A stretch of 64,000 bases of DNA from a virus (IMGVR_UViG_3300021375_000006), one strand, 5' to 3'; positions 5,273 through 55,460 are shown, counted from the first letter of the stretch. The notes: generated from the letters alone by a model not told the origin. Numbers and translations: made by a program.

Positions 5273-5767
5273 ATGAGTATACGAATTGAGAAGACAGGAG
5301 GCCCATGGCCAGCAAACCGATACGGTATTGTTCTAAAGTACTTACCAAGATTCTTAAGAAAGTTTCTAATAACTCACAGGAATCTTGCTAAATGGTCTGA
5401 TGATGACCAATTCATGGAATGTGTTTTAAAGATACAGCGACCGAATTCTAGAACTAATACTAAGATTTATTGGGATATGATAAATGATAGAGCAATAGAT
5501 GAAAAAGGTCTAGAGCGTTCCTATAATACTATTGATTGGTATTGTGCCATCTCACTAAAACCTATTAGGGCTAAGTTTATGAATTTCGATTTAAAGAATT
5601 TCATACACCCTGAATATTACGATGTCTTAGAAGCGCCAATGGTGGATAGTCGTATACTTAAATCATCAGTTGACTTTCGCAAGAAATGCAAAAAACTCCT
5701 GCTCGCAGAACGAGAGGAGTTTCTTAAACTTGCTAAAAAGAACTCTAAGTCTAATTTATCTACTTAG
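5273..5767 (+). CDS. Hypothetical protein on the opposite strand
   Basis: 164 aa ORF filling the gap between minus-strand genes; GATAAATATA just upstream. Confidence 0.7.
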   Translation: MSIRIEKTGGPWPANRYGIVLKYLPRFLRKFLITHRNLAKWSDDDQFMECVLKIQRPNSRTNTKIYWDMINDRAIDEKGLERSYNTIDWYCAISLKPIRAKFMNFDLKNFIHPEYYDVLEAPMVDSRILKSSVDFRKKCKKLLLAEREEFLKLAKKNSKSNLST

Positions 5768-7684
5768 AATTATTTTCATTTTATCAGCAATTGACATTGA
5801 CTCATGCAATTCAATTTTCTGATTTATACCTAAGTCTTCTTTTAAAGATTCCCAAGTTAATTCTTTAGATTCGTTCTTGGCTTTTTGTTTTTTCTTAATT
5901 TCATCAAATTCTCCATTCTTAACTGCTTTTAAATCTTTTGCAGCCTGGTCTACCTCCTTTTGATCTTGAGGAATCTCTTTGTCTTTTAATTCCTTCTCTC
6001 TATTTTTAAGATCTTCTTTTTTCTTTTTCAGATCTTCAATTTCATCTTTTGCAACTTGTACTGCAGCTTCTTGGTCAGAAGATTTAGCCTCTTCGACTTC
6101 TTGAGAACCCTTCGCTTCTTGATAATTTAATTTTGCATTTTTAACATCTGATTGTGCATCTTTAATTTCAGCTTCGTCTCCACTAAGTTCAGCTTTAGTT
6201 AATTTAGCTTGTGCAATTTCTAATTTTTTTGACATAACGTCAGGATGTGATCTTGAATTTAATTTATTCATTAAAGGAACTAGTTCATCTTCTAATTTCT
6301 TAATTTGATCGTCTACGTTTTTAATATCTTTTGCACTAGGTGGATCGGAAGCCGCGGCAATGTCTTCTGCTTTTGCAATATCACCATCAACCTTGTTAAT
6401 TGCATCAGGTATTTCTTCTAATTCATCCTTGTCATCTTGTAATTCCTTTTGAGCAGAAGCTAATTTATCTTGAGCCTTTTTAAGTTCTGGATTTTTAGGT
6501 TTTTCTTCTTTTCCATCATCTTTCATTAACGGATTCTCCGTTGTATCAGATTTACCATCTTCAGTACTACCAGCTTTAGAATCTTTCTTTTCGTAATCTT
6601 CACCCTTTAATGCAGCTCTTTGAGCTTTTAACTCTTCTAGGTAATCTTCTAAGTAGTAAATACCTTCTTGTGTTTTATCTTCTTGTTGTTTCGCTGCCGC
6701 TAAGTCTGCCTCTAATTTACTTTTTTCTTCCGGAGTTGCGTCTGCTAAATCTTTCTTAATATCAGTAATTTTAGATTGTACAGGTGCAAGATCCTCATCC
6801 TTTTCTCTATCAATTTCAGTTTGAATTTTCTTAATATCCTCTTCTAACTTAGGATCGACATCTTTTGAAAGCTCTTTAATAGCTTCATCTGCCTCTTTAG
6901 ACTTGGCTCCCATTTTCTTAAGCTCATCAGCAGCCTCTTTTGCAGCATCTGATTTACCCTTTTCTTTTGCAATTCTACCCTTTTCTCTTAGGCCTTCTAG
7001 CTTTACTTCGTTAACAATTTTCTTTTTAGTATTAGCATAAAGATCTCCTTCGCTACCACTTGGCATATTCTCCTCATACTTCTTTAGGTCGTCATTAGCC
7101 TCTTCTAAAGCTTGTTTTGCTTTCTCTTTTACCTCTTCGAATTTTTCACTAAGATCTGACTTCTTCTCTTTAAGTGCTTTAATTGTGGCAATTGCTTTTT
7201 GTTTGATTGCATCCTTTTTAGGACCAGCAGCTTCATCCCTAGCACGCTTCATTTTATCAATAGAAGCTTCTATTTTTTTTAATGCATCATATTCTTTAGC
7301 AGCAATAATATCTGCATTAGAAGTAGAAAGTAAATCTTTATATTTACCTTTTAATAGAGCTATACCCTTTACGAAGTTGGCCTGTTTCTTAACCCATCCT
7401 AAGATTGCCTCTAGACTTTCGTTTAGTGGTCTATTTTCTTGAAAAAAAAAATCTTTATTTACAGTCTCTGTTATTTGCTTTGATAGTGTTTCTAAATTAG
7501 TTAGAATTTTATCCACATCTGCAATAATTTCTGCTCGAACCTTATCTCCTGTAGATTTAACAGTTTTATCAACTGATATAGAAGATGTATTGGTATTACC
7601 TAAGGGTGCAACATTTTGGCCTGGGTTTGAAACCTCACCTGCAGCAAACTCTTCAAATAATTTTACTTTATTGGTTTTAATCAT
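5756..7684 (-). CDS. Long K/E/D/A-rich coiled-coil protein with N-terminal FEEF motif; putative internal head protein
   Basis: MIKTNKVKLFEEFAAGE, PLNE site, highly charged helical body, late promoter at 7712-7721. Confidence 0.55.
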   Translation of the reverse strand: MIKTNKVKLFEEFAAGEVSNPGQNVAPLGNTNTSSISVDKTVKSTGDKVRAEIIADVDKILTNLETLSKQITETVNKDFFFQENRPLNESLEAILGWVKKQANFVKGIALLKGKYKDLLSTSNADIIAAKEYDALKKIEASIDKMKRARDEAAGPKKDAIKQKAIATIKALKEKKSDLSEKFEEVKEKAKQALEEANDDLKKYEENMPSGSEGDLYANTKKKIVNEVKLEGLREKGRIAKEKGKSDAAKEAADELKKMGAKSKEADEAIKELSKDVDPKLEEDIKKIQTEIDREKDEDLAPVQSKITDIKKDLADATPEEKSKLEADLAAAKQQEDKTQEGIYYLEDYLEELKAQRAALKGEDYEKKDSKAGSTEDGKSDTTENPLMKDDGKEEKPKNPELKKAQDKLASAQKELQDDKDELEEIPDAINKVDGDIAKAEDIAAASDPPSAKDIKNVDDQIKKLEDELVPLMNKLNSRSHPDVMSKKLEIAQAKLTKAELSGDEAEIKDAQSDVKNAKLNYQEAKGSQEVEEAKSSDQEAAVQVAKDEIEDLKKKKEDLKNREKELKDKEIPQDQKEVDQAAKDLKAVKNGEFDEIKKKQKAKNESKELTWESLKEDLGINQKIELHESMSIADKMKIILSR

Positions 7685-7738
7685 TTTTCAATATATGTGT
7701 TTGTCTATGTTTTATATATCTGGATGATTTTGCATAAA

Positions 7739-7763
7739 AAAAGCCCCTCGATGAGGGGCTTTT
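7739..7763. terminator. Intrinsic terminator downstream of the major capsid gene
   Basis: AAAAGCCCCTC-GAT-GAGGGGCTTTT perfect stem with A/T tracts. Confidence 0.9.
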
Positions 7764-7790
7764 ATATTAAATTACTAATTGCTATTTAGA

Positions 7791-9176
7791 TTATAGTCTA
7801 AAACCTGCAACAGTAAATTTCTCGTATTGAGTTTGTGGGTGGAATCCAGCTTCAACTAATGCGTATCTAGATTTTACAGCTACTTTTGGAGCCATAGTAC
7901 CTTCAACGATAGCCTGTACTGATTCAGCCATTAAGTAAGGCATGAATACAAGACCTGGACCGTTACCGTCACCTTTTCTACCAACTAATACTTCACCAGA
8001 AGCGAAGTCAACTGAAGGGTCAGTATAGATGTTAATACCTGCTACAGAACCTAAAGGATAGATTGAACCTGCAACTTGGTTAACAGTGTTAGCCATTGGG
8101 TAAGCAACGAAACCTGCTACAGATTGTAAAGCAGATGCCATTTTACCACCTACAACAGCGAAGTTACCTGCACCTCTTCTACCACTTTGCGCGATTAAGT
8201 TCGCAGCAGCAAGGATTGAAGTTAAGATAGCTCTGTGTTGGTCAGCGATAGTTTCACCACCAGTTAAAGCACCAGCAGCAGGAATAGTAAATCCTAAACC
8301 GTTAGTAGTACCAGCGATAGATCTCATCTTAGTTAAGATGTGATTGTTGATAGACTGAGTTAATTCGTTAGTTAAAACTGCTTCTACTTGAGCAACAGCG
8401 TCAACACCGAATTGTTTAAGGTCTTGTACTTGCTCTCTAGTTACAGCAGCAGCTACTTGGAAAGTCTCTGCAGAAACTGATTTAGAGAATAAGCTTAAGC
8501 CCATTACTTTGTCTGGAGTTTGTTCCCCAACACCTCTATCGAAAGGAGCACCAGCATCGTTAGCACCAGAGAAACCAGGAATATGGTCTTCTAAAGCTTT
8601 TACTAATTCAGCACCATCATATCTAACTGAAATACTAGTTTCAGCTGGATCTGCAGTCGCATCTAATGCATCAACAATTCTGATGATTGATTTTCCGTCA
8701 ATTCTAGAAGTTCCAACTTTTACGTCGTTACCTGCAGCTACAGAATCTTTATCACCAAACTTGATGTAAGTTGGAGTTGTTGAACCAGCAGTCTTACCAC
8801 CTTCGTATACGAAGTCTAAGTAAGAAAGTAATCCCATTGGTCCAGCCATAGGTACAACAGGTACTAGGTCTAAACCGATTGTTTGAGCAGCAACTTGCAT
8901 TGCTAAAGGTAATAACGTTGGTGATTTGTCACCTGAACCGTCTGCACCTGCACCACCTTGGGCAGTATTGTTACCTCCTGGGTAGCTTGTTGCTCCCATA
9001 CCAAAGATGTTACCAGCAGTGCCTAAGGCCATGATGTTTGCATCTTCATAAAGCTTGTGATTGTGGCAGTATTCTGACATCCAAGCTAGTTTTGAGCTTT
9101 CGTTAATTCCAGTTGCTTCTTCGATAATCGGAGACCAAGTGTTTCTAACTTCAGCTTCATTAATTAAATTTGCCAT
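7791..9176 (-). CDS. Major capsid protein (T4 gp23-like)
   Basis: VVPMAGPMGLLSYLDFVY, AQVEAVLTNELTQSINNHIL, GRRGAGNFAVV, YMAE...TMAPKVAVKSRYALV. Confidence 0.97.
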   Translation of the reverse strand: MANLINEAEVRNTWSPIIEEATGINESSKLAWMSEYCHNHKLYEDANIMALGTAGNIFGMGATSYPGGNNTAQGGAGADGSGDKSPTLLPLAMQVAAQTIGLDLVPVVPMAGPMGLLSYLDFVYEGGKTAGSTTPTYIKFGDKDSVAAGNDVKVGTSRIDGKSIIRIVDALDATADPAETSISVRYDGAELVKALEDHIPGFSGANDAGAPFDRGVGEQTPDKVMGLSLFSKSVSAETFQVAAAVTREQVQDLKQFGVDAVAQVEAVLTNELTQSINNHILTKMRSIAGTTNGLGFTIPAAGALTGGETIADQHRAILTSILAAANLIAQSGRRGAGNFAVVGGKMASALQSVAGFVAYPMANTVNQVAGSIYPLGSVAGINIYTDPSVDFASGEVLVGRKGDGNGPGLVFMPYLMAESVQAIVEGTMAPKVAVKSRYALVEAGFHPQTQYEKFTVAGFRL

Positions 9177-9273: not shown

Positions 9274-9283
9274 TTATATATCT
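9274..9283 (-). promoter_or_regulatory. Class III (late-like) promoter (A/T/G)GATATATAA
   Basis: Copies at 1659, 7712, 9274, 11667, 12066, 13712, 16479 (variant), 17541, 18444, 30521, 48004, 52441, 55463 (variant) on - and 53089 on +; mostly upstream of structural genes. Confidence 0.8.
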
Positions 9284-11644: not shown

Positions 11645-11705
11645 ATCTATGGTTTATCTATTTTTATTATATATCTTGTTGTATTATACAAATATCTTAA
11701 TATCT

Positions 11706-12062
11706 TTAGACGCCTGCTAACGGATCTTCTTCTTCTCCGCCACCAGCATCTGCTTCGGCTTCTTTCTCTTCTTCCTTCTCTTGCTCAGCGTCCTCTGCCG
11801 ATTTATCTAAATAATATGCTACTAGAACATCCATCTCACCTTCAGCGAATGCATCTACTCCATACTCTCTATAGAAATACTCTTTAAATTCGCCCTCTGT
11901 TTTAGAAGAAGTAATAACTCCTAATATTTCAGCGGATTTGATTGTAGCACCAGAATCTAATTTTAAGTCTTCGACATAAATTTTAGAGTCTTCACCTGCC
12001 TTCATAGCGTCCTCTGCTATAAAATCTTCAAAGGTTTTAATTATTTTAAAATCGTTTTTCAT
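11706..12062 (-). CDS. Small acidic prohead-associated protein carrying the TFEDFIAE motif
   Basis: Between portal and protease, as T4 gp67/gp68 are. MKNDFKIIKTFEDFIAED; own late promoter. Confidence 0.55.
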   Translation of the reverse strand: MKNDFKIIKTFEDFIAEDAMKAGEDSKIYVEDLKLDSGATIKSAEILGVITSSKTEGEFKEYFYREYGVDAFAEGEMDVLVAYYLDKSAEDAEQEKEEEKEAEADAGGGEEEDPLAGV

Positions 12063-12095
12063 AATTTATATATCTCTTTTTCTGGCGAATCTAGG

Positions 12096-13691
12096 TTAAA
12101 GTGCATTCGGGTCCTCTTTCTCAGGCTCATCTGCATTATCTTTAGCCTCCTTTGCCTTATAGGCTTTGTTAGCTCTAATCTCGTCGTCAGTTAATTTTAA
12201 GTATTTAGTTACTAGATATTCTTGATCGAAATAGTATTCTTCTTCCATAGTTTCTGGATTAGTTGTCATTAGAGAGTCTCTCATGCTTGCGATAAAGTCT
12301 AATCTCAATTGCATGATTTCTTGCTCTTTTAATTCTGCAAATACATTCTCTTCATTATATCTTAATGCTACTTGAGTTTTAAACTGTGGATCGTCTACAA
12401 ACTCTGGGTACTTAAGACACATTTGAATATAAAGTGGTTTTACTAATATCTCTTGGAAGACTGATCTTAGACGCTTGATAAATTTACCAAACTTAATCTC
12501 ATCTCTTACCATACCGTCACCGGCTAGTGCGTAGTCACCACCATCATCTTCATATAAGAATCTATTGTAAGGAATTTTTGAAACCTCTTTTAATTTATCT
12601 GAGAAGTATTTAAGTGCTTCAGTGTCTGATAGATCTGGACCATCACCACCAAGGGTTTCAATTTCTGGCGTTTCACCATCTTTAGAAGGTAGCCAGTATT
12701 CTTTAGAGAATTGTAACATTGGCTTACCATCAGTTTCTAATGTTCCTGATTCAAAGTCAAAGTCTACAACTTCTTTATAGTTATTCATCAGCTGTGCTAA
12801 TGATTGTTTTGCTCTTGTTTTAGATTTACCACCAACAGGGATAATAAACTTCATTCTGAATGAAGCGTTCGTTACTGCCCATACCACTCTGGTATGTTCC
12901 ATAATTCTTAGTAAGTTAAAAGATCTTACTAGTCTCTCAACGTAACTTACTCTTGAAGCAGTTGAAAGGGAAGAATATGAAATGTAAATAATTTGAGAAT
13001 CATAAAGTACTCTCTCCTTTACAGGATCGTCTTTATATTGAATCCATACTTTCTTACCATCGTCTTTATTGTAACCTGGCATTAGAGTGATAGGATCGAT
13101 CTCTTTAAAACCTATAATCTCTTTTTGGTCTGGGGAATAAATTATCTCAAATGATAAGTAACCATCTACTAGGAATTTTCTAAAGAAGTACCATGCTGAT
13201 TGCTCACCATTAAATCCAAAGTAGTGATAGATTTGTCTAAAGTATTTGTTCAGGTCTTTGTTAACCTGGTCTGAGACATCAAGTCCCATAATCTCTGGTT
13301 GACAAAAGAAATTCTTTTCATTATATACCACTGCCTCGTCACAAAGAATATCTAGAATATCTTCAACCTCATCGTTCATTGAGAATCTTCTCAATTCATC
13401 TCTCTTACCTGGATAATCAATGTCAAAGAAAGGTACATTCTTCTTCATATTGATGTCACCCATTGATAGTGCTGCAAACGCACCATAGATGTCATCATTA
13501 TCTAAACCGAATGGATTCATTTCCTTATAGCCAAATTGGTCTTCCATTGGACCAATAGCTTGGGATTGACGTAGAACCATATCATCATAGCGCATACCAA
13601 AAGAACTTAGCGTCTTCAGTGCACTGGAGAGGCTAAATGGTCTTGTGTTAGAACTAAATGGTCCGTTTCTTTTATCTGCAAATCCTGCCAT
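12096..13691 (-). CDS. Portal vertex protein (T4 gp20-like)
   Basis: FRKFLVDG, IDP, SYVERLVRSFNLLRIME, YWLPSKDG...EIETLGG, YFSDKLKEVSKIP, RDEIKFGKFIKRLR. Confidence 0.97.
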   Translation of the reverse strand: MAGFADKRNGPFSSNTRPFSLSSALKTLSSFGMRYDDMVLRQSQAIGPMEDQFGYKEMNPFGLDNDDIYGAFAALSMGDINMKKNVPFFDIDYPGKRDELRRFSMNDEVEDILDILCDEAVVYNEKNFFCQPEIMGLDVSDQVNKDLNKYFRQIYHYFGFNGEQSAWYFFRKFLVDGYLSFEIIYSPDQKEIIGFKEIDPITLMPGYNKDDGKKVWIQYKDDPVKERVLYDSQIIYISYSSLSTASRVSYVERLVRSFNLLRIMEHTRVVWAVTNASFRMKFIIPVGGKSKTRAKQSLAQLMNNYKEVVDFDFESGTLETDGKPMLQFSKEYWLPSKDGETPEIETLGGDGPDLSDTEALKYFSDKLKEVSKIPYNRFLYEDDGGDYALAGDGMVRDEIKFGKFIKRLRSVFQEILVKPLYIQMCLKYPEFVDDPQFKTQVALRYNEENVFAELKEQEIMQLRLDFIASMRDSLMTTNPETMEEEYYFDQEYLVTKYLKLTDDEIRANKAYKAKEAKDNADEPEKEDPNAL

Positions 13692-13720
13692 AATATAGTA
13701 TTATTTCTGTTTTATATATC

Positions 13721-39931: not shown

Positions 39932-40474
39932 TTATTTTCCGTCTATTTGAATAACTTCGTTATCTCTAATTTCAAGATTGTTGTTACCAACTGATTCATC
40001 ATATTCACCGTAAATAACTTCACTTTTAGATGCTAATGGAGAATTCATCATTCCAGTCTTATCTATTTTTCTAGCGAATTTTTTACCGTTAACATCATCC
40101 ATAAAGCCTACGTTAATTACTACTTCGTATGAAAGATATAATGTGTTGTCCGGGTCTATATCATTTAAACCATTAACCTCATCTATAGCGAATCCATTAA
40201 AAAGATTGGCAGTAACAAATAAGATACCATCCATGCCACCTGCTCCTTTTTCTACTTGATCTAAAATGATCTTCTTAGCTTTATCTTCAAACTTAGCCCA
40301 CTCTTTATTAACTTCTTCTTGAGTTACTACATTAATACCTTCGTATTTTACTGTTTTAATTTCTTGTTTAAACGCTTGCATTACTTTACCTACAAGACCT
40401 TTAGCCGCGTAGATACCAGTCATTCTATATGACTTCTCGTTTAGGAATTGTTCGAATGTTGGAATTGTTTTCAT
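39932..40474 (-). CDS. Putative internal head protein with TFEQFLNE leader
   Basis: MKTIPTFEQFLNEK. Confidence 0.6.
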   Translation of the reverse strand: MKTIPTFEQFLNEKSYRMTGIYAAKGLVGKVMQAFKQEIKTVKYEGINVVTQEEVNKEWAKFEDKAKKIILDQVEKGAGGMDGILFVTANLFNGFAIDEVNGLNDIDPDNTLYLSYEVVINVGFMDDVNGKKFARKIDKTGMMNSPLASKSEVIYGEYDESVGNNNLEIRDNEVIQIDGK

Positions 40475-40491: not shown

Positions 40492-42864
40492 TTACCAAGC
40501 GTAATCGAACTTCTCGATCTTGTTTATTCTTTCTTTAATTTGTTTCGCGTAGTTCTTAGATTCTCTTTCGTAGTAAGATTCTTTTTCGCCATATCTAGCT
40601 TCAGATTCTTCTGCTTGTCTAATGTAATCTACATATCTAGAATAGTCATCTAAAATATTTGACATGTGTTGAGATGCATCTTTTGCTTTTACTTCTTTAC
40701 CTTTTGCGTTTTCACCAATTTTGATTTCTTGGTATCTAGTCTTCTCACCTTTTGCTAAACCATCTGAGATTTGCTTAGCCAGTTTATCGATTGCATCTGC
40801 TACCATTTTATCTAGTGGTAAGCTTGCAGCTTTATTAGCTAAGATCTTGTGGTATCTATTTTGGTTAGCCTCTTTAAAGTCTTTATCAGATTTGAATGCT
40901 GTTGCACCGGCTTTAGCTTCTGCTCTTGCACTTCTTAATTGGTCAGTAGAATACTTTTGTCTAATTAATTCTAGGTTAATAACAATAACTCTATCGGACA
41001 TCTCTGCAATTCTCTTACCGTTGTTAAGACCTGATGCACCCCAACCCCTGTATTTGTGGTTGATACCGATTTGACCCTCAGAACCTTTTTTCTCTTTAGA
41101 CCAAGATCTACCACCTGACCATCTTGACCATTCATTAGCATAGAATTGTCTGTCACCAGACATAGCTGCTAATACAATACCTCCACCAGGAACCATTTTA
41201 TAGTCATTCCATGATCCGTTGTTATGGTCATAGTATGGATTTTCTTTCTCGTTATCTGAGATAAAGAAAAGTACGTGGCTTGAACCGCCGTAGTTTTTAA
41301 ATATCTTTGATACATCGTTGCTAATAATAAAATCTTCATCTTCGATTTTATCAAGAGCTACTTTAGATAGGTTGTAAAAACCTTTAGCTAAATTAGAAAG
41401 ATTTTTCTTACTTTCTTTACCCTCTCTACCGTTCGATAGAACTGTTCTTAATATAGAGGATTTGATTGCTTCGTTAAGAAAGTTAGCTCCAACGAAGTCG
41501 CTAAATGACTCAAACAAGTTTATTTCGTTTTTCATATTTGTATTTTCTTCTAGTTTTTTAGCAGCTAAATCTTTATCTCTTTTGGATACGTTATCTAGGT
41601 AAGAGCCGTCTCCCCAGAATTTAACAACTAATTCAGTTTGAGTAGTTGAATGCATACCTGGTTTGTAAACTGCAATATCTCTTAATTTCTTGTTAGAAGC
41701 AATGGTTTGCTTCATGAAGTCAAGAGCTTGTTTCTCGTTTCTAAACTTTTTCATAGCACTTACACCGTCACTATAGATAACTTCATAGTTTTCAGTAACT
41801 GCAGATTCTTCTAAATATAAGTTTACATATTTACTACCTTTTTCTGAGTAAATTGAAGTAATTTTAAAATCACCTTTAATTGATTTACCAGTATCTTTTT
41901 TATACCAATCTGCATAATAAGCTTTAAAGAATAAGTTTGGTTCTAGTTCTCCAAAGAAGTGTGAAAGTTTACCTAAATAAAATTCAGCTTTAGGATATAC
42001 TTTTAAAATATCTTTTTCTGTTTCAGCATCTAGAACTGCTTTATCAAATTCTTTTACAAATTTAGCTTCAGTAACTTTTGACTCATCCACTCTCTTGATA
42101 GTATCGTGGAACCAATCTTCTGGCTCATCTCTATAATCAGTGTAAACATCAATTTCCCATTCATCACCGAATTGGTCAACGCCAACATAATACCAATCTT
42201 TGCCCTCGTTACCGTGGTCGTCAATAATATCACCTTGGTCAAACTCTACTTCATACTTCTTACCACCATCTTTAAATTCAATATATGGGAATTTATCTTT
42301 AGTAACTTTGATCTTCTCGTTTACTACTGACTCTTCGATATACTCGGCTAAATCTGGATCGTCCCATCCAAGTTCTGGATCTGCTAGTACTTTTTCAAGA
42401 TCCTTTCTCTTACCCTGCATTGTGATAACTGGAGTACCACCGCCTGGACCGTCCATTACTTTATTGATAATCTTAACTTTATTCTTCTTTAAGAATTTTA
42501 AGAAGTCTTTATCATCAGGGTTAATTGCATCCATCTCTACTGTAGCCTCAAATACCTCAGCAGCTTTAGGAGTTTCATCTAGCTCAGCTAGAATTCTACG
42601 TCCCCATTTTGAAAGCTTTACACCATCTTCAGAAACATTAAAGTACTTTCTATTTCTAGAAGCCCATTGATTTGAACTAGTAGATAATTCAGAAAGAATC
42701 TTATTGAATTCTTCTCTTGTTACCACGCCATCTGCAATTGCCTGTAAGACTGCGTTTCTTACGCTAGCAGTTTTACCTACAGTTTGAGCAGGGTGGTTCT
42801 CTGTATATTTTCTTTTGATTTGCAATTTCTTGCCTTCCGATAAAAAGTCTTCGAAGTTTATCAT
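40492..42864 (-). CDS. Multi-module putative internal head polyprotein
   Basis: MINFEDFLSE leader; linkers EVFE, ESVVNE, ESKVTE, ESAVTE; internal MKNEINLFESFSDF...FLNE. Confidence 0.6.
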   Translation of the reverse strand: MINFEDFLSEGKKLQIKRKYTENHPAQTVGKTASVRNAVLQAIADGVVTREEFNKILSELSTSSNQWASRNRKYFNVSEDGVKLSKWGRRILAELDETPKAAEVFEATVEMDAINPDDKDFLKFLKKNKVKIINKVMDGPGGGTPVITMQGKRKDLEKVLADPELGWDDPDLAEYIEESVVNEKIKVTKDKFPYIEFKDGGKKYEVEFDQGDIIDDHGNEGKDWYYVGVDQFGDEWEIDVYTDYRDEPEDWFHDTIKRVDESKVTEAKFVKEFDKAVLDAETEKDILKVYPKAEFYLGKLSHFFGELEPNLFFKAYYADWYKKDTGKSIKGDFKITSIYSEKGSKYVNLYLEESAVTENYEVIYSDGVSAMKKFRNEKQALDFMKQTIASNKKLRDIAVYKPGMHSTTQTELVVKFWGDGSYLDNVSKRDKDLAAKKLEENTNMKNEINLFESFSDFVGANFLNEAIKSSILRTVLSNGREGKESKKNLSNLAKGFYNLSKVALDKIEDEDFIISNDVSKIFKNYGGSSHVLFFISDNEKENPYYDHNNGSWNDYKMVPGGGIVLAAMSGDRQFYANEWSRWSGGRSWSKEKKGSEGQIGINHKYRGWGASGLNNGKRIAEMSDRVIVINLELIRQKYSTDQLRSARAEAKAGATAFKSDKDFKEANQNRYHKILANKAASLPLDKMVADAIDKLAKQISDGLAKGEKTRYQEIKIGENAKGKEVKAKDASQHMSNILDDYSRYVDYIRQAEESEARYGEKESYYERESKNYAKQIKERINKIEKFDYAW

Positions 42865-42866
42865 AA

Positions 42867-43250
42867 TTATGCTTTAATTTTTGCTAGTTTACCCTGTTTC
42901 TCTTCATACTGGAATGAGAACTTAGACTTTGCGAAAAGTGTTCCCATTGAGAATGAGACATAAACTCCGTCTGGTTTTTTCATAGCAGTCTTATATGCTT
43001 CTGCTGCAGCAGCCTCATCGTCAAAAATACCAATGTATTGTTTCTTGCTACCACCATTCTCTAGTCTAATTCTTTGACCATAGAAGTCTACTTCATTGTG
43101 AGCAAATACTAAATACTTTGTATTACCTTTTTCTGGTAGGTTGTCGCTATGCTCTCCAAATGAAGTTCTATCATTGTAGTAGTAAGAACCAAATTGAATA
43201 GACTCATTTACTGAATCTCTGAAGCCTTCGAATGTTTTTATGTTTTTCAT
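42867..43250 (-). CDS. Putative internal head protein with TFEGF leader
   Basis: MKNIKTFEGFRDSVNES. Confidence 0.6.
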   Translation of the reverse strand: MKNIKTFEGFRDSVNESIQFGSYYYNDRTSFGEHSDNLPEKGNTKYLVFAHNEVDFYGQRIRLENGGSKKQYIGIFDDEAAAAEAYKTAMKKPDGVYVSFSMGTLFAKSKFSFQYEEKQGKLAKIKA

Positions 43251-43269: not shown

Positions 43270-45129
43270 TTATATATTCTTTAAAAAATCATCGAAGGTT
43301 AGGAATTCTGGTTGTGCAGATTCTGCAGCAACACCCATCGAGTCTTCTAATTTCATTTTAAGTTCTCCATACATACCATGTATATCCTTAGGAGTTAATT
43401 TCTTAAATAGTCTTTCGTCACCATCAAGCATTGCGTTTCTAACCTGAGTTGCTGAAATATTCTTGCCTGATCTTGGAATTTCAAATAAACCAAAATCGTC
43501 TCTTACACCTAGATCGTCTCTGTATTCTTGTTTATCTGCTTGATAACTATAGACTTTCATTCTATCAGTTCCAGTTCCCCATAATACTGGCTCGTATTGT
43601 GGTCTTAATTCATTAAACATTTTATCAATTGCTGCAGTAGGTAAAATCTTTACATCTTCAATTGGATAAGAAGATTTTAATTTTTGTAACATTGATAGTT
43701 GAGTCTCTTCGTCGTAAGGTCTCTTGAATGCATCTTCTGCTTTCTTAGTTTTAGACTTAATTAAAAAGATAACTACTGGATAACCGTTTTGTTTATAGAT
43801 AGTTTCAATAACTTTAGCGTGTCCTAATGTAAATGGTTGAAATCTACCAACAAACATATTTACAGGCTTCTTACCTTGATCTTTATACTTAACAGTTAAG
43901 CCTTCCATGATTGGACTAACTTGAGCTGAAATTTTTTGGTTTAATAAATATTGTTTAAAATCCATTACGTCTGATTCATTTGCTTTTGCCATTATTAAAC
44001 CCTCAATGGTTTCAACGATCTCGTTGATCTGCTCCATTAAATCTTTATTAATAAGGTCGGTTTCTTTAGTTCTCTTTTTTCTAAAAGAGCCTAATACAAT
44101 CTTAAATAACTCAGATAATATCTTATCTTGTACTAAAGTAAGTGTCTTTTCGTTTTGAATAAACTTATTATTTAATTCAAACATAGGAGATTCAGAAAAG
44201 TCTGCAGAGTCAAATTTAGCACCAATATATTTTGTAGCATTTTTTTCTACATAATTATTAAAAATAGATGACATTAATTCTAAATATCTTCTATCTACCT
44301 TTCCTTCTTTTAATTCTATTGATGAGAAATCAAATTGTACTAAATGTTCTACAACATCTAAAATTGTAATTTGATACATGTCTGATGGTTTTCTTGGATC
44401 CATCGGTTTTTTATTAAACTTCTCTAATTTAAAAGATTGTAATTCTGTTCCGTCATGAAAATTAATAATAAACCCTGCAACATCTTTTGAAAGATCGTTC
44501 ATTAAAGCAGATTGCTTCATATTCTCATTAAAAATACCGAATACTGTTCTTGTAAAGCTAGGCTTCTCAAAGTCTTCAAATGTCTGTTCAAATTCATTAA
44601 CCGACATTGCAAGAATTTGTTTTAATCTATCCTTTTGACCTGAGTCAAGTTGACCTTCAAATAATATAGGTGGTTTTGAAACATTTAGTTTATCCGCCCA
44701 CTTATTAAGTATTTTGGTATCTCTAATTACCTTTCTAACTTTATTAGGATTAGATGGTTGTAAAACTTGTATATGCGTTAAAATTAAATTTGATTCTGGT
44801 AAAACATCATACTCCACATCAATTGTTTTATTATCGCCAAGATATTCAAATCCAAACTTCCAGTCAAATGGCATATCTTCTATAACTTCTTTAGAAACAG
44901 ACTTAAAGTGGCGAATTGCGTTCTCATAGTATCTGACAATTGTACGATCTACTATATCCATTGGTTGCTTAGAACCAGATTTATAGTATGCAAAATCAGT
45001 ACCTTGTCTTCTTGCATGAAAAGATGAACCGTTGATTTTCTCAGTCACAATACATTTGTGGTTAAGTAGTTTATCAACGTCTGCTGTGTTAGCTCCTTCG
45101 AAATATGTTTTTAAATTGTCTAATGCCAT
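43270..45129 (-). CDS. Ligase-fold nucleotidyltransferase-like domain fused to an HxGH-type (cytidylyltransferase-like) domain
   Basis: N-terminal VTEKINGSSF; C-terminal FVGRFQPFTLGH...GTDR...ISATQVRNA. Confidence 0.75.
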   Translation of the reverse strand: MALDNLKTYFEGANTADVDKLLNHKCIVTEKINGSSFHARRQGTDFAYYKSGSKQPMDIVDRTIVRYYENAIRHFKSVSKEVIEDMPFDWKFGFEYLGDNKTIDVEYDVLPESNLILTHIQVLQPSNPNKVRKVIRDTKILNKWADKLNVSKPPILFEGQLDSGQKDRLKQILAMSVNEFEQTFEDFEKPSFTRTVFGIFNENMKQSALMNDLSKDVAGFIINFHDGTELQSFKLEKFNKKPMDPRKPSDMYQITILDVVEHLVQFDFSSIELKEGKVDRRYLELMSSIFNNYVEKNATKYIGAKFDSADFSESPMFELNNKFIQNEKTLTLVQDKILSELFKIVLGSFRKKRTKETDLINKDLMEQINEIVETIEGLIMAKANESDVMDFKQYLLNQKISAQVSPIMEGLTVKYKDQGKKPVNMFVGRFQPFTLGHAKVIETIYKQNGYPVVIFLIKSKTKKAEDAFKRPYDEETQLSMLQKLKSSYPIEDVKILPTAAIDKMFNELRPQYEPVLWGTGTDRMKVYSYQADKQEYRDDLGVRDDFGLFEIPRSGKNISATQVRNAMLDGDERLFKKLTPKDIHGMYGELKMKLEDSMGVAAESAQPEFLTFDDFLKNI

Positions 45130-45137: not shown

Positions 45138-46409
45138 TTATCTACCGTATTTAATAATACCCATTAACTGGTTAATAGCGGCAAAAGTTCCAGTTAACTT
45201 GAATGTTTTACCATTGTATTTAAAGACTAGGCCTTCTGTTGGAATGATTGACTCAATACCGCCGATACCTTCTAGTCTCTTTAATTCTTTTTCTACTTTC
45301 TCAATTTGTTTTAGATCTCCGTTCTTTTTAACTTTGTCAGCTTCAGTTCTGATTTGCTTATGTAATCTTGCTTTCTCAGCCTCTGGGTTAGCAGCAACAA
45401 AATTAGAAACGTTCTTTAAAACATCTGCACCTAATTCTAAAAATAGGTTCTCGAAAGGTAGAATGTTTTCTTTATACTTCTTATTTCTTTGACCATCAAA
45501 ATCTTTGACAGCTTTTGCTTGTTCTGGAGTAACTGCTTTCTTTAAGTCTCTCATATTTAGAGTCTTCTTGTCTAAGTATGCCCATCTTAATAGAAGTCCT
45601 TCTTTTAATACTGGGTCTAAATCCCCAAAGTTCTCTTCGATTTGGTTTCTCCACCAAGCCTCGTGATACATTTTAACCTCATCTTGATCTGATAGACTAT
45701 AAGTATCTCTTAGTTTATTTATCGCCTTTTCGTAATAGCCGACTCTCTCATCAAAGTTAATATCTTTTCCTAACTTTAAAATTTGAGGGGGAATTATTGT
45801 AAAGGTCTTTTGCACATCAGCTTTTAACTCTCTAAGTGCTTTTACAATCTCACCTGCAATATTCTCTTCACCTATGATATTACCAGCACCATCAGTAACT
45901 TTCATACCGTGGAATTGAATAACATCTCTGTCATAATAGATTACATTAGGATTCTTAGAGTAAATTAGCTCCATGTTGATAAATGAGTTACCATCTTGGA
46001 ATACAGATTGGTCCTTAAGCTTTGGGAGCGCATCTGCTAGATCTTTAGCAGCAAAGATAAATGTTTCTTCAACCAGCTTTGAAGCATGGCCAGTAAACAT
46101 CTTAATGATACCATTTAGGTCGAGTGGATTAGCTAGTTGCCCTTTATTTCTAGCGAACATAGCTTTACCATCTTTTACAGTTGCAAATACATTCTGACCA
46201 TCTGTCTTTTCAGTTGGTGCCTCTTCAAAATCAAGACCTCCTTGTAGTGCAGACTTTACAATTCTCTTGAAATCTGCAAACGTTAATGAGTGGTCATCGA
46301 ATGGGTGCATCATGTGACCAGCGGCACCACCTTCAAATACGAAATTGTCCAAGTTATTGACCTGGACTTTCTCGTTTAAGAATTCTTTAAATGTATATAG
46401 TTTCTTCAT
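45138..46409 (-). CDS. ATP-dependent ligase-fold (RNA ligase-like) nucleotidyltransferase with TFKEFLNE leader
   Basis: EGGAAGHMMHPFD; motif I EKTDG, III NMEL, IIIa IQFH, IV EGLVF, V KTFKL. Confidence 0.7.
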   Translation of the reverse strand: MKKLYTFKEFLNEKVQVNNLDNFVFEGGAAGHMMHPFDDHSLTFADFKRIVKSALQGGLDFEEAPTEKTDGQNVFATVKDGKAMFARNKGQLANPLDLNGIIKMFTGHASKLVEETFIFAAKDLADALPKLKDQSVFQDGNSFINMELIYSKNPNVIYYDRDVIQFHGMKVTDGAGNIIGEENIAGEIVKALRELKADVQKTFTIIPPQILKLGKDINFDERVGYYEKAINKLRDTYSLSDQDEVKMYHEAWWRNQIEENFGDLDPVLKEGLLLRWAYLDKKTLNMRDLKKAVTPEQAKAVKDFDGQRNKKYKENILPFENLFLELGADVLKNVSNFVAANPEAEKARLHKQIRTEADKVKKNGDLKQIEKVEKELKRLEGIGGIESIIPTEGLVFKYNGKTFKLTGTFAAINQLMGIIKYGR

Positions 46410-46428: not shown

Positions 46429-47967
46429 TTATCCTAATGATGATTGTAATGCACCAACTGCTGCACCATAGTCACCGTCGTGTTTAGTTAATAAACCGTC
46501 TACTACTTCTTGAGCTTTTTCTTCATCGAATTCGTCACCGAACGCTTGTTGTAAAACTGAGAATGCATACTCTTTAAAATCTTCGTCTGATTTTACTTCA
46601 GCTTCGTTAGTAGCTTCTTCAGCAACTTCTTCAGTTTCTTCTACTTCTTCAGTTTCTTCTACTTCTTCAGTCTCTTCAACCTCTTCAGTTTCTTCTACTT
46701 CTTCAGTCTCTTCAACCTCTTTAGTTTCTTCTACTTCTTCACCTTCTTCAGTAGCTTCACCTTCTTCGTGGTGTGCTTCTTCAGTAGATTCTGTTTCTTC
46801 TTCAACTTCTTCTCCCTCTTTAATTACAGGATAAGTCTTACCGTTAAACTCAAACTTTTCAGCATCTTCTTCGATTGCTTTAGCTCTTGCGGCTAAAAAA
46901 GCGTTACCTTCATTCATCACAGACTCGTTAGCCCAGATTAATTCAAATGCATCTACAATTTTTTGAGCAGTATCACCATGTCCGAATCCATCTAAGAATA
47001 ATGCCATACCTTCAACGATACCAATACCTGACCATCCAGCTGCATTAGCTAGACCAGAGTAATGTTCGTCTAATAGGTTAATGATTGATTTTTTACCAAC
47101 TGGAACTGACATTCCACCTAAATTATCGATGTCTACCATAATAGTAACAATCTTACCACCTAGTGCTTTACTTACTGGATCTCTATATCTGTGGAAGTTA
47201 GCGTCTGTTAGGGCTTCAGCTAATAAGTATCTACAAACACCTAATAAAAGTGGTCCGTCCATTAATGCAGTATGGTTCGTAAAGAATGATTCTAACCATT
47301 TAGCAACTTTCTTAGCGTCTCTTGCATTACCTTTACTTGGTTTAAATGCTTCATTAATAATTAGTGACTCAAATGCTGGAATTAATTCTTTATCTCCATA
47401 TACATCTGCCATATACCATTTGCCATCTCTTTCATCAAATAGGTAAACGAATTCTGCTCCTGCTCTATCGCTAGCATCAGAAATATAATCGTCGACTTTC
47501 TTAACATCACCTTTTAGTGTTGTTTTATCTCCGTAGAAATTAATCTTACTTGGATCTGCTTCCAAACCTGAGCCACCCCCTTTCTTAAGTAAAAACTTAA
47601 CTGTTCCGGAGTTCATGTAACCCTTCTTAATTGTAGGTAACATGTGGTCTGGATAACCATCGTAGTGCATATACACTGACTCTATTTTTCCTCTTTTAGA
47701 AATAATACCAACTTGTGATCTGGTACCTTCTTCAATGATAGCTAAAGACTCAGATACTTCAGAAGCACCTAGCTTAGCAAAAAATTTGTTTCTATCTTCT
47801 TCGTTTAAATCTTTTACAGATGTAACGCCGAACTCAGATAATAATGTTTCGAATTGGTAAGCTGACTCTGTACGAGCTACTTTTTGTTCTTCTTCTAATT
47901 TCATTTTTGCTGCTTTAGCGGAAGCATTAGCGAAATCTTCAAAAGACTGTAGTTTTAATGAACCCAT
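46429..47967 (-). CDS. Multi-module putative internal head polyprotein with acidic repeats
   Basis: SFEDF leader; modules after AIIEE, ESLIINE, ESVMNE and ATNE; contains a GTRS...VYMHYDGYP module and a GNAF module; late promoter at 48004. Confidence 0.6.
   Translation of the reverse strand: MGSLKLQSFEDFANASAKAAKMKLEEEQKVARTESAYQFETLLSEFGVTSVKDLNEEDRNKFFAKLGASEVSESLAIIEEGTRSQVGIISKRGKIESVYMHYDGYPDHMLPTIKKGYMNSGTVKFLLKKGGGSGLEADPSKINFYGDKTTLKGDVKKVDDYISDASDRAGAEFVYLFDERDGKWYMADVYGDKELIPAFESLIINEAFKPSKGNARDAKKVAKWLESFFTNHTALMDGPLLLGVCRYLLAEALTDANFHRYRDPVSKALGGKIVTIMVDIDNLGGMSVPVGKKSIINLLDEHYSGLANAAGWSGIGIVEGMALFLDGFGHGDTAQKIVDAFELIWANESVMNEGNAFLAARAKAIEEDAEKFEFNGKTYPVIKEGEEVEEETESTEEAHHEEGEATEEGEEVEETKEVEETEEVEETEEVEETEEVEETEEVEETEEVAEEATNEAEVKSDEDFKEYAFSVLQQAFGDEFDEEKAQEVVDGLLTKHDGDYGAAVGALQSSLG
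46610..46810 (-). repeat. Coding tandem repeat (EEVEET)n
   Basis: About six 18-bp units, the same unit type as in the scaffold gene. Confidence 0.9.
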
Positions 47968-53061: not shown

Positions 53062-53124
53062 GTGCCTTAACATGCTAAAAAAATAGCTAGATATATAATA
53101 CATAGATAAACAAATTATATAGAA

Positions 53125-54105: not shown

Positions 54106-54143
54106 TCTTACCAAACATCAACTAAAATTACAGGAGGTGTCCT

Positions 54144-54329
54144 ATGTCATGGGACCACAGACCTTGGGAAATGCAATCACGCCAACGCTATGAAATGGAG
54201 TGGGAAAGACGTGAGTTTAAACGGCTTGAAATAGCTGAAGAACTAAGACTTGAAAAAAAGTTGAATAAAATTGAAACCTTTTCTGGGAAGTCGCATATAA
54301 GGCATGTCTTTAAGGCCAAAGAAAGATAA
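54144..54329 (+). CDS. Small charged hypothetical protein
   Basis: 61 aa ORF with a canonical AGGAGGT Shine-Dalgarno at 54132-54138. Confidence 0.55.
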   Translation: MSWDHRPWEMQSRQRYEMEWERREFKRLEIAEELRLEKKLNKIETFSGKSHIRHVFKAKER

Positions 54330-54415
54330 GTACCATTCCAGGGCTGAGGGCAGAGACTAGGCTGAAGGCAGAGATTAGGACAGTTTTGGAGTCCCGCGGT
54401 TTGAAGCAGATTTGG

Positions 54416-55087
54416 TTAGTCTGGCAAATTTTCCCCAAGTTGCTGAAGCAAATAATGATTAAGGAACCAGGCATCGACAATGTCATCAAAAGGCTTCGGC
54501 ACTTTTTTCACCTCACCAATTTCTTTCTGACAGTAAGCAAACAACGGCGAGCTAGCTAACTCATCACTCTCACATACATTATCTAAAAAGGATTGCCAAA
54601 GAGCTAACTTATTCATATTCCCTTTACCAGCATGTTTCTTAATTGTAGTAGGTGCAACGGTCAGTAGATTTTTGACGTCGAGCTGAGCAATCATTTGCTC
54701 TTTTAGAATAGCAGCTCCTGCAGCCATATCAATCATATTATTAGTTCCCATTTTAGAACCGTATGACGTACCTTCAAATGCAATATGATAATCTTGTTTA
54801 GTCTGCGTTATATTAACGATCAGGTTAATAATATCATCAGCAGTCTTAATGTATCTCTTGATTTTTGCGAACTCGTTCTTAGAGTAATCTCCAACAACTA
54901 ATTTCCAGTCAGGTTGATGAACTAGAGTCACGTCTGAGAATGTGCTTATTTCTTCTTGTCGCTTTTGTTCAGCTTTCGTACCTGAACCAGCTTTAATATA
55001 GGAGATAAAGTGATACCTATTCGTGTCAGATGACCAGATACAGATACCAGGGGAATTAAGCGAGAAGTCAACAGTAACTAAATTCAA
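54416..55087 (-). CDS. RuvC-like Holliday junction resolvase
   Basis: VDFSLNSPG, IAFEG, PTTIKK, DDIVDA. TTG 55087 is a plausible start; the track start at 55114 overlaps the upstream gene. Confidence 0.8.
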   Translation of the reverse strand: MNLVTVDFSLNSPGICIWSSDTNRYHFISYIKAGSGTKAEQKRQEEISTFSDVTLVHQPDWKLVVGDYSKNEFAKIKRYIKTADDIINLIVNITQTKQDYHIAFEGTSYGSKMGTNNMIDMAAGAAILKEQMIAQLDVKNLLTVAPTTIKKHAGKGNMNKLALWQSFLDNVCESDELASSPLFAYCQKEIGEVKKVPKPFDDIVDAWFLNHYLLQQLGENLPD

Positions 55088-55088
55088 A

Positions 55089-55460
55089 TTAGAATCTTTT
55101 ACCCATCGCAGCACCTAGAGCGGCACCGACTAATCTGGAAGTTAATAGATCGTAGAATATACCTTTTTGAATACCTAGTACTTTGGCTAACATCTTACCG
55201 ATAGATTTTCCTAGTGCAAAACCAGTTAAACCACCGATGATAGAACCTAAAAGACCCTCTTCAACTAGATCTTCTTCTAATCTATCTAAATCAAATTCAC
55301 CAGTCTCTTCATTTAAGTATTGTTTCACAAACTCTTCTAGAGCTTGGTCAACTTTTTCCTCTAATTCAGGAGTCCACTCAGACTGTAGGCCTTCTGTTAA
55401 TAGAGCCATATCAGTTTCTGTGAGTTGTTGTTCAACTAAGTAATCATTAAATGTTTTCAT
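55089..55460 (-). CDS. Putative internal virion protein: acidic TFNDY leader region plus C-terminal glycine-zipper helix
   Basis: MKTFNDYLVE...LVEE-GLLGSIIGGLTGFALGKSIGKMLAKVLG...LVGAALGAAMG. Confidence 0.6.
   Translation of the reverse strand: MKTFNDYLVEQQLTETDMALLTEGLQSEWTPELEEKVDQALEEFVKQYLNEETGEFDLDRLEEDLVEEGLLGSIIGGLTGFALGKSIGKMLAKVLGIQKGIFYDLLTSRLVGAALGAAMGKRF

Follow-up and report, generated by a model that had tools for sequence, protein, structure and literature searches.

The closest described counterpart of the leader analyzed here is the capsid-targeting sequence (CTS) of bacteriophage T4, MKTYQEFIAE, which was reportedly described by Mullaney and Black in 1996 for IPI, IPII, and IPIII. 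The T4 tag is already in use for loading foreign proteins, and a reporter is still carried into heads when position 10 of the CTS is Asp. Published work on the CTS points to an affinity for the scaffold core. In T4 IPIII, targeting depends on residues 4 and 7 and processing on residues 8 and 10, and Alt of the same phage is a large packaged enzyme with gp21 processing at both of its ends (PMC9026906). In SPN3US and 201phi2-1, the ejection proteins are internal to the head and are cut after Glu by the prohead protease, and targeting by their propeptides has been inferred (PMC5694885).

The window, i.e., the whole 64-kb stretch of jumbo-phage DNA analyzed, encodes a set of proteins with a leader that very probably is a T4-type CTS. 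The first-pass annotation had described this leader, and all nine strings quoted in it were located at the ORF ends to which it had assigned them. The proteins concerned are as follows:

5756..7684, minus strand: carrier of 642 aa, charged coiled-coil; N-terminus MIKTNKVKLFEEFAAGE, leader KLFEEFAAGE; 19.5 bits.
11706..12062, minus strand: carrier of 118 aa, acidic, prohead-core-like; leader MKNDFKIIKTFEDFIAE followed by D, the most T4-like; 25.1 bits, top match of the window.
39932..40474, minus strand: carrier of 180 aa; N-terminus MKTIPTFEQFLNE, leader PTFEQFLNE followed by K; 22.2 bits.
40492..42864, minus strand: carrier of 790 aa, modular, polyprotein-like; leader MINFEDFLSE followed by G; 11.6 bits.
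42867..43250, minus strand: carrier of 127 aa; N-terminus MKNIKTFEGFRDSVNE, extended leader KTFEGFRDSVNE followed by S; 6.0 bits.
43270..45129, minus strand: protein of 619 aa with a ligase-like N-domain and a cytidylyltransferase/NMNAT-like domain; C-terminal copy EFLTFDDFLKNI at the end of the chain; 11.5 bits at residue 610.
45138..46409, minus strand: carrier of 423 aa, RNA-ligase-like nucleotidyltransferase with EKTDGQN motif; N-terminus MKKLYTFKEFLNE, leader YTFKEFLNE followed by K; 15.9 bits.
46429..47967, minus strand: carrier of 512 aa, modular; N-terminus MGSLKLQSFEDFANA, leader LQSFEDFANA; 12.7 bits.
55089..55460, minus strand: carrier of 123 aa; leader MKTFNDYLVE followed by Q; 15.2 bits.

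The scores were obtained with a nine-column leader matrix made solely from the N-termini of relatives; as no window sequences entered it, the significance test was independent of the window. The search covered 20,449 residues of gene products as well as the 64 kb translated in six frames. The seven best matches among the 20,449 residues belonged to seven ORFs, starting at residues 2–9, and the eighth-ranked match was the C-terminal copy in the 619-aa protein. In six frames, only the seven N-terminal sites (11.6–25.1 bits) and this C-terminal copy reached at least 9 bits. Of the eight matches of at least 10 bits, seven lay no further in than residue 12 (binomial p about 1e-9), shuffled proteomes gave 0.3 matches at this threshold, and the N-termini of all non-carrier window genes scored at most 2.1 bits. 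The ninth carrier (42867–43250) was weaker, with its leader starting at residue 5; some of its orthologs scored 8–13 bits and several others (127–138 aa) less than 8. Beyond the leader, all-against-all BLAST of the carriers gave only low-complexity matches (acidic or coiled-coil). The description of the leader as common to otherwise unrelated proteins thus held, less strongly for the 127-aa carrier. Another ORF, 33341–34570 (KYYDEFIRY), matched a loose regular expression; it scored −0.8 bits with the matrix and hence is not a carrier.

The sequence of the leader closely follows that of T4. The lineage consensus, MK-x-[IV]-K-[LT]-F-E-[EQD]-F-[IVL]-[NSA]-E, is close to MKTYQEFIAE, and the four top matches of the lineage matrix in the whole T4 proteome were gp61.1, IPIII, IPII, and IPI, all at residue 2. 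The best-conserved matrix columns (F/Y, F, I/V/L, and E) correspond to positions 4, 7, 8, and 10 of the T4 CTS, with F/Y found at both aromatic columns in 71/71 leader instances of the relatives. KTFEDFIAE of the 118-aa carrier, whose leader is conserved in more than 50 orthologs, is identical to KTYQEFIAE of T4 at six of nine residues, the remaining three being conservative. All eight window leaders contain F..F or F..Y, and five of them end canonically in (I/L)-x-E (FIAE, FLNE twice, FLSE, and YLVE). In the 127-aa carrier, the end (VNE) is displaced by three residues, and two ends are atypical: AGE in the 642-aa carrier and, in the 512-aa carrier, a sequence lacking [ILV]-x-E directly after FxxF.

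Two carriers were found within the head gene module, adjoining the genes for the following proteins:

7791..9176, minus strand: major capsid protein, gp23-like; tblastn found T4-like capsid genes in 1108 phage records.
9284..11644, minus strand: prohead protease of 786 aa, Peptidase_S77 (gp21 family); PF03420, E 1.5e-12; PHROG 207, head maturation protease.
12096..13691, minus strand: portal protein, T4-type (gp20 family); PF07230, E 3.3e-72.

The 118-aa carrier is encoded between the portal and protease genes, the position of T4 genes 67/68, and the 642-aa carrier immediately downstream of the capsid gene. In orthologs of the latter, the leader is kept, and the remainder is 183 to 698 aa long (some of these lie at contig ends). 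The protease, which shows 28% identity to T4 gp21 over 116 aa, is fused to a coiled-coil, acidic, scaffold-like tail and is the presumed leader-removing enzyme. A complex prediction with leader residues 1–35 of the 118-aa carrier and the 786-aa protease-scaffold protein gave a score of 0.00, which is no answer either way. The motif GATATATAA occurs 13 times in comparison with 1.7 expected and precedes the portal, protease, and capsid genes as well as carriers or the heads of their operons; it is read here as a putative late-type promoter motif common to head genes and carriers. Its distance upstream is 12 nt for the 118-aa, 36 nt for the 642-aa, and 45 nt for the 512-aa carrier, the last opening the cargo operon. 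For 42867–43250, AATATATAA is found 28 nt upstream, and for 55089–55460, GATATATAC is found 12 nt upstream. Together with the consensus, the conserved columns, and the result of the matrix on T4, these head genes support the earlier proposal of a T4-like CTS ending at the Glu of a prohead protease site.

It is proposed that the leader would form a short N-terminal amphipathic helix, with the two aromatics three residues apart and the following I/L/V constituting its hydrophobic face. By analogy with T4, the helix would dock the protein onto the assembling prohead scaffold core. At the [ILV]-x-E site in which the leader terminates, the prohead protease of the gp21 family would cut it off after shell closure, leaving a mature protein that would stay inside the head and be ejected with the DNA. 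The tagged proteins are thus probably packed into the head and injected. In the AF2 model of the 423-aa carrier, the leader is a low-confidence helix (residues 7–15) followed by a disordered linker.

The leader could instead be merely a propeptide removable by the protease, e.g., one keeping enzymes inactive until head maturation, with no targeting role, the proteins reaching the prohead otherwise or never. The [ILV]-x-E cleavage consensus at the end of most leaders and the comparable Glu-ending linkers inside modular proteins would fit this. However, the two aromatics are the best-conserved columns, and in T4 the aromatic positions are needed for targeting and not for processing (PMC9026906). 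The internal ES-x-V-x-E linkers (nine seen vs. 1.9 expected) do without the FxxF pair, and, as far as sequence tells, the leader is therefore more than a cleavage site. The conserved C-terminal copy also argues against a mere propeptide. The 619-aa protein, in which PF01467 was detected at residues 425–565, lacks an N-terminal leader, and the C-terminal copy LTFDDFLKNI was present in it as previously described. The corresponding [LM]TFxx[FY][LIVM] is kept at some 27 loci, in orthologs as little as 49% identical, and is often not followed by Glu (the chains ending in KNI, KS, or KK); cleavage hence cannot be its sole role. A propeptide without targeting function is accordingly considered quite unlikely, and a CTS remains the preferred reading.

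Internal copies had been claimed for two polyproteins. Such copies were located in the 790-aa carrier and in the following protein:

38173..39930, minus strand: modular protein of 585 aa with a DUF3008 N-terminus, without N-terminal leader; weak internal copies.

The copies in the 585-aa protein, at residues 189, 305, and 515, scored 6.7, 5.9, and 8.3 bits. The 790-aa carrier has ES-x-V-x-E linkers at three places and, around residue 452, a degenerate leader copy; in relative G2, the part corresponding to its residues 463–790 is an ORF by itself and has a leader. The interior matches in the window (8.7, 8.3, and 6.7 bits) were weak, about one of at least 8 bits being expected by chance. Two of them nevertheless aligned with a strong internal leader or a leader-bearing gene start in relatives, the counterpart of the copy at residue 189 in relative G3 being an internal leader of 27.9 bits. 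The presence of degenerate leader copies at the module junctions of polyproteins may hence be regarded as partly confirmed. In the 585-aa protein, a candidate mimic of the capsid N-arm (NIGGMGP...GSGD) was dropped, its local alignment being not significant against shuffles.

Tagged ORFs were counted genome-wide in the relatives G2, G3, and G007. The 145 tagged ORFs of the lineage fall into 33 families. The complete 256-kb genome of G007 has 25 tagged ORFs compared with four in T4. Among genomes encoding an S77 protease, N-terminal matches of at least 10 bits numbered 25 in G007, 16 in LR756500 (462 kb), four in T4, and one each in KVP40 and P-SSM2. The controls, Staphylococcus phage K and phiKZ, both lacking PF03420, gave no N-terminal match of at least 10 bits. 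When IMG/VR was searched with the leader DNA pattern alone, PF03420 was encoded by 10/10 of the largest contigs found. Judged by these matches, a large clade of uncultured jumbo phages keeps the tag on protein families that are unrelated to one another, and the tag appears conserved from T4 to phages with capsid proteins only about 22% identical. A full-text literature search of incomplete coverage revealed no paper tying a CTS to cyanophages, KVP40, megaphages, or marine jumbo phages.

The co-occurrence of the leader with a T4-type head protease also bears on its destination. A short N-terminal amphipathic segment resembles some membrane-targeting helices, and the 123-aa carrier has a glycine-zipper-like, possibly membrane-active part, as might be found if the leader directed proteins to the cell membrane, a secretion route, or another phage-made compartment. 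However, the net charge of the leaders is acidic, their hydrophobic residues number only three and are interspersed among Glu, Asp, and Gln, and features of Sec/Tat signal peptides (a hydrophobic core of 7–15 residues after a basic N-region and a signal-peptidase site) are absent from them. The co-occurrence with the head protease, the placement of two carriers within the head gene module, and the match to a sequence experimentally proven to target the T4 capsid likewise argue against a destination other than the capsid, which is the least probable of the alternatives.

The tagged genes of relatives form hypervariable arrays, with 16 consecutive ones in G007 and clusters in G3, and modules shift between ORFs at leader-like junctions. 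Such an arrangement would also be compatible with the N-terminus being mainly the boundary of a recombination cassette, i.e., conserved DNA for swapping variable genes with no function at the protein level. However, the codons for the conserved Phe, Glu, Leu, and Thr vary synonymously among leaders, so that identical DNA stretches are short, and conservation is by amino-acid class (F/Y, I/L/V, and E) in genomes of 24% to 43% G+C. As the codons vary in this manner, selection on the leader is taken to act at the protein level. Cassette exchange is compatible with targeting and is insufficient alone for the pattern; as the sole explanation it is very improbable.

The carriers differ widely in what they appear to be. 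In the 423-aa carrier, modest VIA-align matches (Z 5–6.3) were to RNA/tRNA ligase adenylyltransferase domains; a PDB sequence search was empty, and Foldseek gave no match at E ≤0.001. Most of its 25 orthologs retain [FY]-x-x-F-L-x-E, several scoring below 10 bits and those of 456–457 aa having no Glu at the N-terminus, and the leader is also retained by the LR756500 homolog (33% identity). The 512-aa carrier contains a PHROG 1987 domain at residues 81–194 and one ES-x-V-x-E-type linker. Besides its leader, the 123-aa carrier has an acidic segment, and its C-terminal half resembles a glycine zipper (PF13488 below its cut-off); its homologs in G2, G3, and LR756500 are 47–70% identical. No match in Pfam, PHROGs, or PADLOC was found for 5756–7684, 11706–12062, 39932–40474, 40492–42864, and 42867–43250, and an Atlas search with 40492–42864 gave no usable match. 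None of the annotated replication genes in the window carries the leader, in line with the first-pass annotation. Enzymes are nevertheless among the tagged proteins, so that some carriers do not resemble virion components. The tagged enzymes comprise the RNA-ligase-like protein here and an Acb1-like phosphoesterase, a kinase, and an ATP-grasp enzyme in relatives, while the nucleotidyltransferase cargo of the window is tagged at its C-terminus. Cytidylyltransferases of T4-like cyanophages start with M[KR]xFxxF[LI]xE, and this enzyme has been detected by mass spectrometry in purified virions of S-SZBM1 and S-CREM2 (PMC9146016, PMC10665884), an indirect indication of packaging. Against it, only one of the three motif-bearing ORFs of S-SZBM1 is represented among the published virion proteins; the other two ORFs are small, and three are too few for an enrichment test.

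In a widespread uncultured T4-like clade (roughly 250–300 kb), the ancestral T4 tag may tentatively be pictured as having become a general loading system for a prepacked, injected arsenal, with at least 25 genes in each genome. With enzymes of the RNA-ligase-like, nucleotidyltransferase, P-loop kinase, Acb1-like 2H phosphoesterase, and ATP-grasp types as its presumed members, such an arsenal could mend cleaved tRNA or eliminate cyclic-nucleotide alarm signals as the DNA enters. The tag would also work C-terminally and at the module junctions of polyproteins, which the prohead protease would cut into separate products. Head-packed proteins act before any phage gene expression and are therefore prime counter-defence candidates; T4 IPI*, a restriction enzyme blocker, is the classic case. 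The tagged Acb1-like phosphoesterase and the set of ligase, kinase, and 2H enzyme would be specific candidates. If this holds, a nine-residue motif would predict the proteins injected by uncultured T4-like phages, cyanophages, and megaphages, and a tag readable from sequence would let the injected sets of uncultured jumbo phages be listed as well. Natural C-terminal or internal tags and cargo of up to 790 aa would broaden the design rules for loading.

Among other systems, encapsulin cargo-loading peptides are short terminal tags through which enzymes unrelated to one another enter an HK97-fold shell; they are usually C-terminal, comparable to the copy on the 619-aa protein. They are of another sequence type and bind the shell directly, with no removal by protease and no DNA packaging or ejection. 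The phiKZ-like giant phages SPN3US and 201phi2-1 share head-internal ejection proteins cut after Glu, as proposed here, but their propeptides are mostly longer than 100 residues and have no common short motif, and phiKZ gave neither an N-terminal matrix match nor a PF03420 match. T4 offers the nearest comparison: as in T4, an N-terminal tag of ∼10 residues with aromatics at positions 4 and 7, I/L/V at 8, and Glu at 10 is shared by otherwise unrelated proteins, and the genome encodes a protease of the gp21 family. T4 Alt provides a precedent both for enzymes as cargo and for an element at the C-terminus, as in the 619-aa protein, and the 118-aa carrier resembles gp67/gp68 in gene position and in a gp67-like acidic tail, with no sequence homology to Alt, gp67, or gp68 detected. 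Unlike in T4, the protease is fused to a scaffold-like protein, large enzymes and polyprotein-like chains (400–800 aa) are among the cargo, and a conserved C-terminal copy and internal copies occur. The phage is also very distant from T4, its capsid protein being 22% identical to gp23, and eight ORFs are tagged in 64 kb alone. Hence, the tag itself would be a known device, and the set of proteins that it marks here and in related uncultured phages, which are probably packed and injected, is much larger than in T4.

The leader shared by ORFs of the window is real and highly non-random. It was found in the following ORFs.

5756-7684, minus strand, N-terminal leader
11706-12062, minus strand, N-terminal leader
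39932-40474, minus strand, N-terminal leader
40492-42864, minus strand, N-terminal leader
42867-43250, minus strand, N-terminal leader
45138-46409, minus strand, N-terminal leader
46429-47967, minus strand, N-terminal leader
55089-55460, minus strand, N-terminal leader
43270-45129, minus strand, C-terminal copy
38173-39930, minus strand, weak internal copies

The nine strings quoted in the first-pass annotation were all located at ORF ends as described. A position matrix derived solely from relatives (71 distinct N-termini), which avoided circularity, gave the consensus M-K-[IK]-[IV]-K-[LT]-F-E-[EQD]-F-[IVL]-[NSA]-E and was used to scan the 67 window genes. Among the 20,449 residues in total, the top seven scores (11.6-25.1 bits) each began at ORF residue 9 or earlier (binomial p ~1e-9 for N-terminal placement), and the eighth-ranked score (11.5 bits) was the C-terminal copy ending 43270-45129. 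Shuffled proteomes yielded 0.3 matches of at least 10 bits, those eight were the only matches of at least 9 bits in the six reading frames of the window, and the N-termini of all other window genes scored at most 2.1 bits. The leader of 42867-43250, KTFEGFRDSVNE, scored just 6.0 bits; some of its orthologs scored 8-13 bits and several others below 8. The carriers had been described as otherwise unrelated, and no significant similarity was found among them beyond the leader, save for low-complexity acidic or coiled-coil stretches. The codons of the conserved Phe, Glu, Leu, and Thr residues differ synonymously between leaders, and selection is therefore on the peptide, not on the DNA or mRNA.

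The proposal of a capsid-targeting signal was supported by comparison with T4. MKTYQEFIAE, the sequence cited as the T4 capsid-targeting sequence (CTS), opens both T4 IPII and IPIII, and the leader of 11706-12062 (KTFEDFIAE) is identical to KTYQEFIAE at six of nine positions, the remaining three being conservative. As a positive control, the lineage matrix was run on the whole T4 proteome (52,684 residues); the four best matches, at residue 2 of gp61.1, IPIII, IPII, and IPI, were the only ones of at least 10 bits. The CTS of T4 IPIII acts in targeting mainly via residues 4 and 7 and in processing via residues 8 and 10 (review, PMC9026906), and the four most conserved matrix columns (F/Y, F, I/V/L, and E) correspond to T4 CTS positions 4, 7, 8, and 10. 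Helix geometry places the three hydrophobic residues among these (i, i+3, and i+4) on one face with Glu, Asn, and Glu opposite, and in the AlphaFold model of 45138-46409 the leader folds, at low confidence, as a short helix spanning residues 7-15, with a disordered linker after it. The recovery of IPI-III and gp61.1 by the matrix and the conservation at T4 positions support reading the leader as the capsid-targeting sequence of T4, retained in a T4-like lineage very far removed from T4 itself.

T4 gp61.1, a hypothetical protein of 54 aa (MKTFKEFIKED..., AF158101 18966-19130; stretch L081), outranked IPI-III in the lineage matrix. T4 57B/Acb1 (AF158101 73952-74410), encoded next to ipI, begins with MMEFKDFSTG, which resembles MKTFKEFTST of IPI. 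Either gp61.1 or 57B/Acb1 might be a packaged protein so far unrecognized.

Judged from protein identities, the relationship of the phage to T4 is distant. The minus strand of the window holds nearly all genes, the G+C content is 31-38%, and a T4-type head module was identified with Pfam and PHROGs.

12096-13691, minus strand, portal (PF07230)
9284-11644, minus strand, prohead protease of 786 aa; N-terminal Peptidase_S77 (T4 gp21), then a scaffold-like tail, coiled-coil and very acidic
7791-9176, minus strand, gp23-like major capsid protein

T4-like replication genes (5'-3' exonuclease, gp44-like clamp loader, UvsW, and gp32) are also present. The capsid protein showed 22% identity to gp23, and the protease 28% to gp21 over 116 residues. 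The closest database match of the capsid protein was a 462-kb uncultured phage (48% identity), followed by Lak megaphages, and IMG/VR contains many relatives whose capsid proteins are 67-93% identical. As the 100-180 kb contigs of these relatives are rated 33-61% complete in IMG/VR and one relative of 256,444 bp with terminal repeats is rated complete, the source of the window is a T4-like jumbo phage with a genome of roughly 250-300 kb.

In the tail of the protease (~580 aa), coiled-coil units recur, about 250 aa form a Glu-rich tract, and the C-terminus is a conserved domain. A stand-alone scaffold gene resembling gp22 was not observed alongside 9284-11644. Within residues 1-50 of the capsid protein, L-I-N-E|A (residues 4-7) and K-L-Y-E|D-A-N (residues 41-47) are invariant in 60 orthologs and are candidate maturation cleavage sites fitting the L-x-E rule. 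T4 gp23 is cleaved at FLTE|AEI. Among the portal-adjoining genes, 14317-14796 (minus strand) encodes a protein with a TnsA-like endonuclease domain (PF08722, E 6e-20), perhaps a nuclease of mobile or homing type.

The motif GATATATAA was found in 13 copies in the window vs. 1.7 expected, 12 of the 13 being on the coding (minus) strand. Example sites are as follows.

7712-7720, motif copy
9274-9282, motif copy
11667-11675, motif copy
12066-12074, motif copy
13712-13720, motif copy
48004-48012, motif copy

The genes for portal, protease, and capsid protein, as well as two genes of unknown function adjoining the head module (starts 17537 and 18416), each have a copy 12-106 nt upstream. Copies also lie ahead of 5756-7684, 11706-12062, and 46429-47967, the last being the first gene of the cargo operon, and near-variants lie upstream of 55089-55460 and 42867-43250. 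Owing to this association with structural genes, GATATATAA is probably the late promoter of the lineage, the T4 counterpart being TATAAATA.

Orthologs of 43270-45129 (about 27 loci, identity down to 49%) retain [LM]-T-F-x-x-[FY]-[LIVM] in roughly their final ten residues, behind a tail that is variable, and two further C-terminal matches were found in the complete relative G007. Such a copy has a precedent in T4 Alt, both ends of which are processed (PMC9026906). Internal copies in two polyproteins, also claimed in the first-pass annotation, were only partly confirmed because the interior matches in the window are weak; two junctions do align with leaders in relatives. In the partial relative G2, residues 463-790 of 40492-42864 (window junction LFESFSDFVGANFLNE|A) correspond to an independent ORF that itself begins with a leader, and in another partial relative, G3, an internal leader of 27.9 bits occupies the position aligned with the weak copy of 38173-39930 (residue 189). 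Linkers of the form ES-x-[VLIM]-x-E (nine seen vs. 1.9 expected), mostly in scaffold and cargo proteins, contain the Glu-ending site without the FxxF pair, an argument for a role of the two aromatic residues other than directing cleavage. In 38173-39930, 40492-42864, and 46429-47967, linkers separate modules whose order and host ORF differ in relatives; for example, the post-leader module of 40492-42864 is found close to the C-terminal end of a G2 ORF of 1072 aa.

Most carriers lack a recognizable family in Pfam, PHROGs, and PADLOC. The model of 45138-46409 aligns at its EKTDGQN motif with RNA and tRNA ligase adenylyltransferase domains (a modest VIA Z of 5-6.3 over ~100 residues; the top 20 VIA matches were all ligases), and 43270-45129 contains a cytidylyltransferase/NMNAT-like domain. 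Acb1-like (anti-CBASS) 2H phosphoesterases with the leader are encoded in G3 (L096:3684-4226:+) and G007 (L355:18662-19201:-), scoring 30 and 28 bits, respectively, against Pfam Acb1, above the cut-off, and both HxT motifs are present in the G3 protein. Such a protein would reach the host cell as a finished counter-defence enzyme. An AAA_33/Zeta-toxin-like P-loop kinase (L355:16667-17386:-) and an R2K-clade ATP-grasp enzyme (L353:4950-5900:-) of G007 also carry the leader. The kinase, the ATP-grasp enzyme, the ligase-like 45138-46409, and the 2H enzyme resemble parts of the Trl1-type RNA repair pathway; we can only infer that ligase, kinase, and 2H enzyme might form an injected RNA-repair or anti-signalling set.

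The cytidylyltransferases of T4-like cyanophages begin with the same skeleton, namely, MKSFSQFLTE in P-SSM2, MKKFSAFLSE in Syn9, and MRFRQFIIE in S-SZBM1.

L226, P-SSM2 158143-159417, cytidylyltransferase
L229, Syn9 gp184, cytidylyltransferase
L228, S-SZBM1_140, cytidylyltransferase

A "cytitidyltransferase" is annotated in hundreds of T4-like cyanophage records, and the CTS-like N-terminus was present in three of three phages examined. In virions of S-SZBM1 no enzyme other than this transferase was detected, and in those of S-CREM2 it was one of six non-structural proteins identified (PMC9146016, PMC10665884), an independent experimental hint. A CTS-like N-terminus would explain this presence in virion proteomes. 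The absence of the other two motif-bearing S-SZBM1 ORFs, both small, from the published virion list counts against the hint.

N-terminal matches of at least 10 bits in Peptidase_S77-encoding genomes were as follows.

LR756500 (462 kb), 16
G007, 25
T4, 4
KVP40, 1 and weaker ones
Cyanophage P-SSM2, 1 and two at 9.2 bits

Staphylococcus phage K and phiKZ, two controls without a PF03420 match, had no N-terminal matches of at least 10 bits. A DNA pattern for MKxxKLFE[EQ]FINE retrieved 106 stretches in IMG/VR; PF03420 was encoded by all of the 10 largest contigs so found, in nine of them as ORFs of 606-747 aa resembling the protease-scaffold fusion of the window. Tagged ORFs number about 10-18 each in G2 and G3 and 25 of 346 in G007, and the 145 distinct ones sampled in the lineage fall into 33 sequence families. 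In G007, 16 consecutive small genes (95-254 aa; 193,196-200,277, L355-L356) each begin with the leader, a run reminiscent, on a much larger scale, of the T-even hypervariable internal-protein loci.

The mechanism of the tag is already known from T4. Interest is added by the scale of tagging, by copies at the C-terminus and in the interior of proteins, by cargo that includes enzymes and polyproteins, and by a reach that apparently extends across the T4 superfamily; no description of these features was found in the searchable literature. In scale, eight tagged ORFs in the window and 25 in G007 compare with four in T4.
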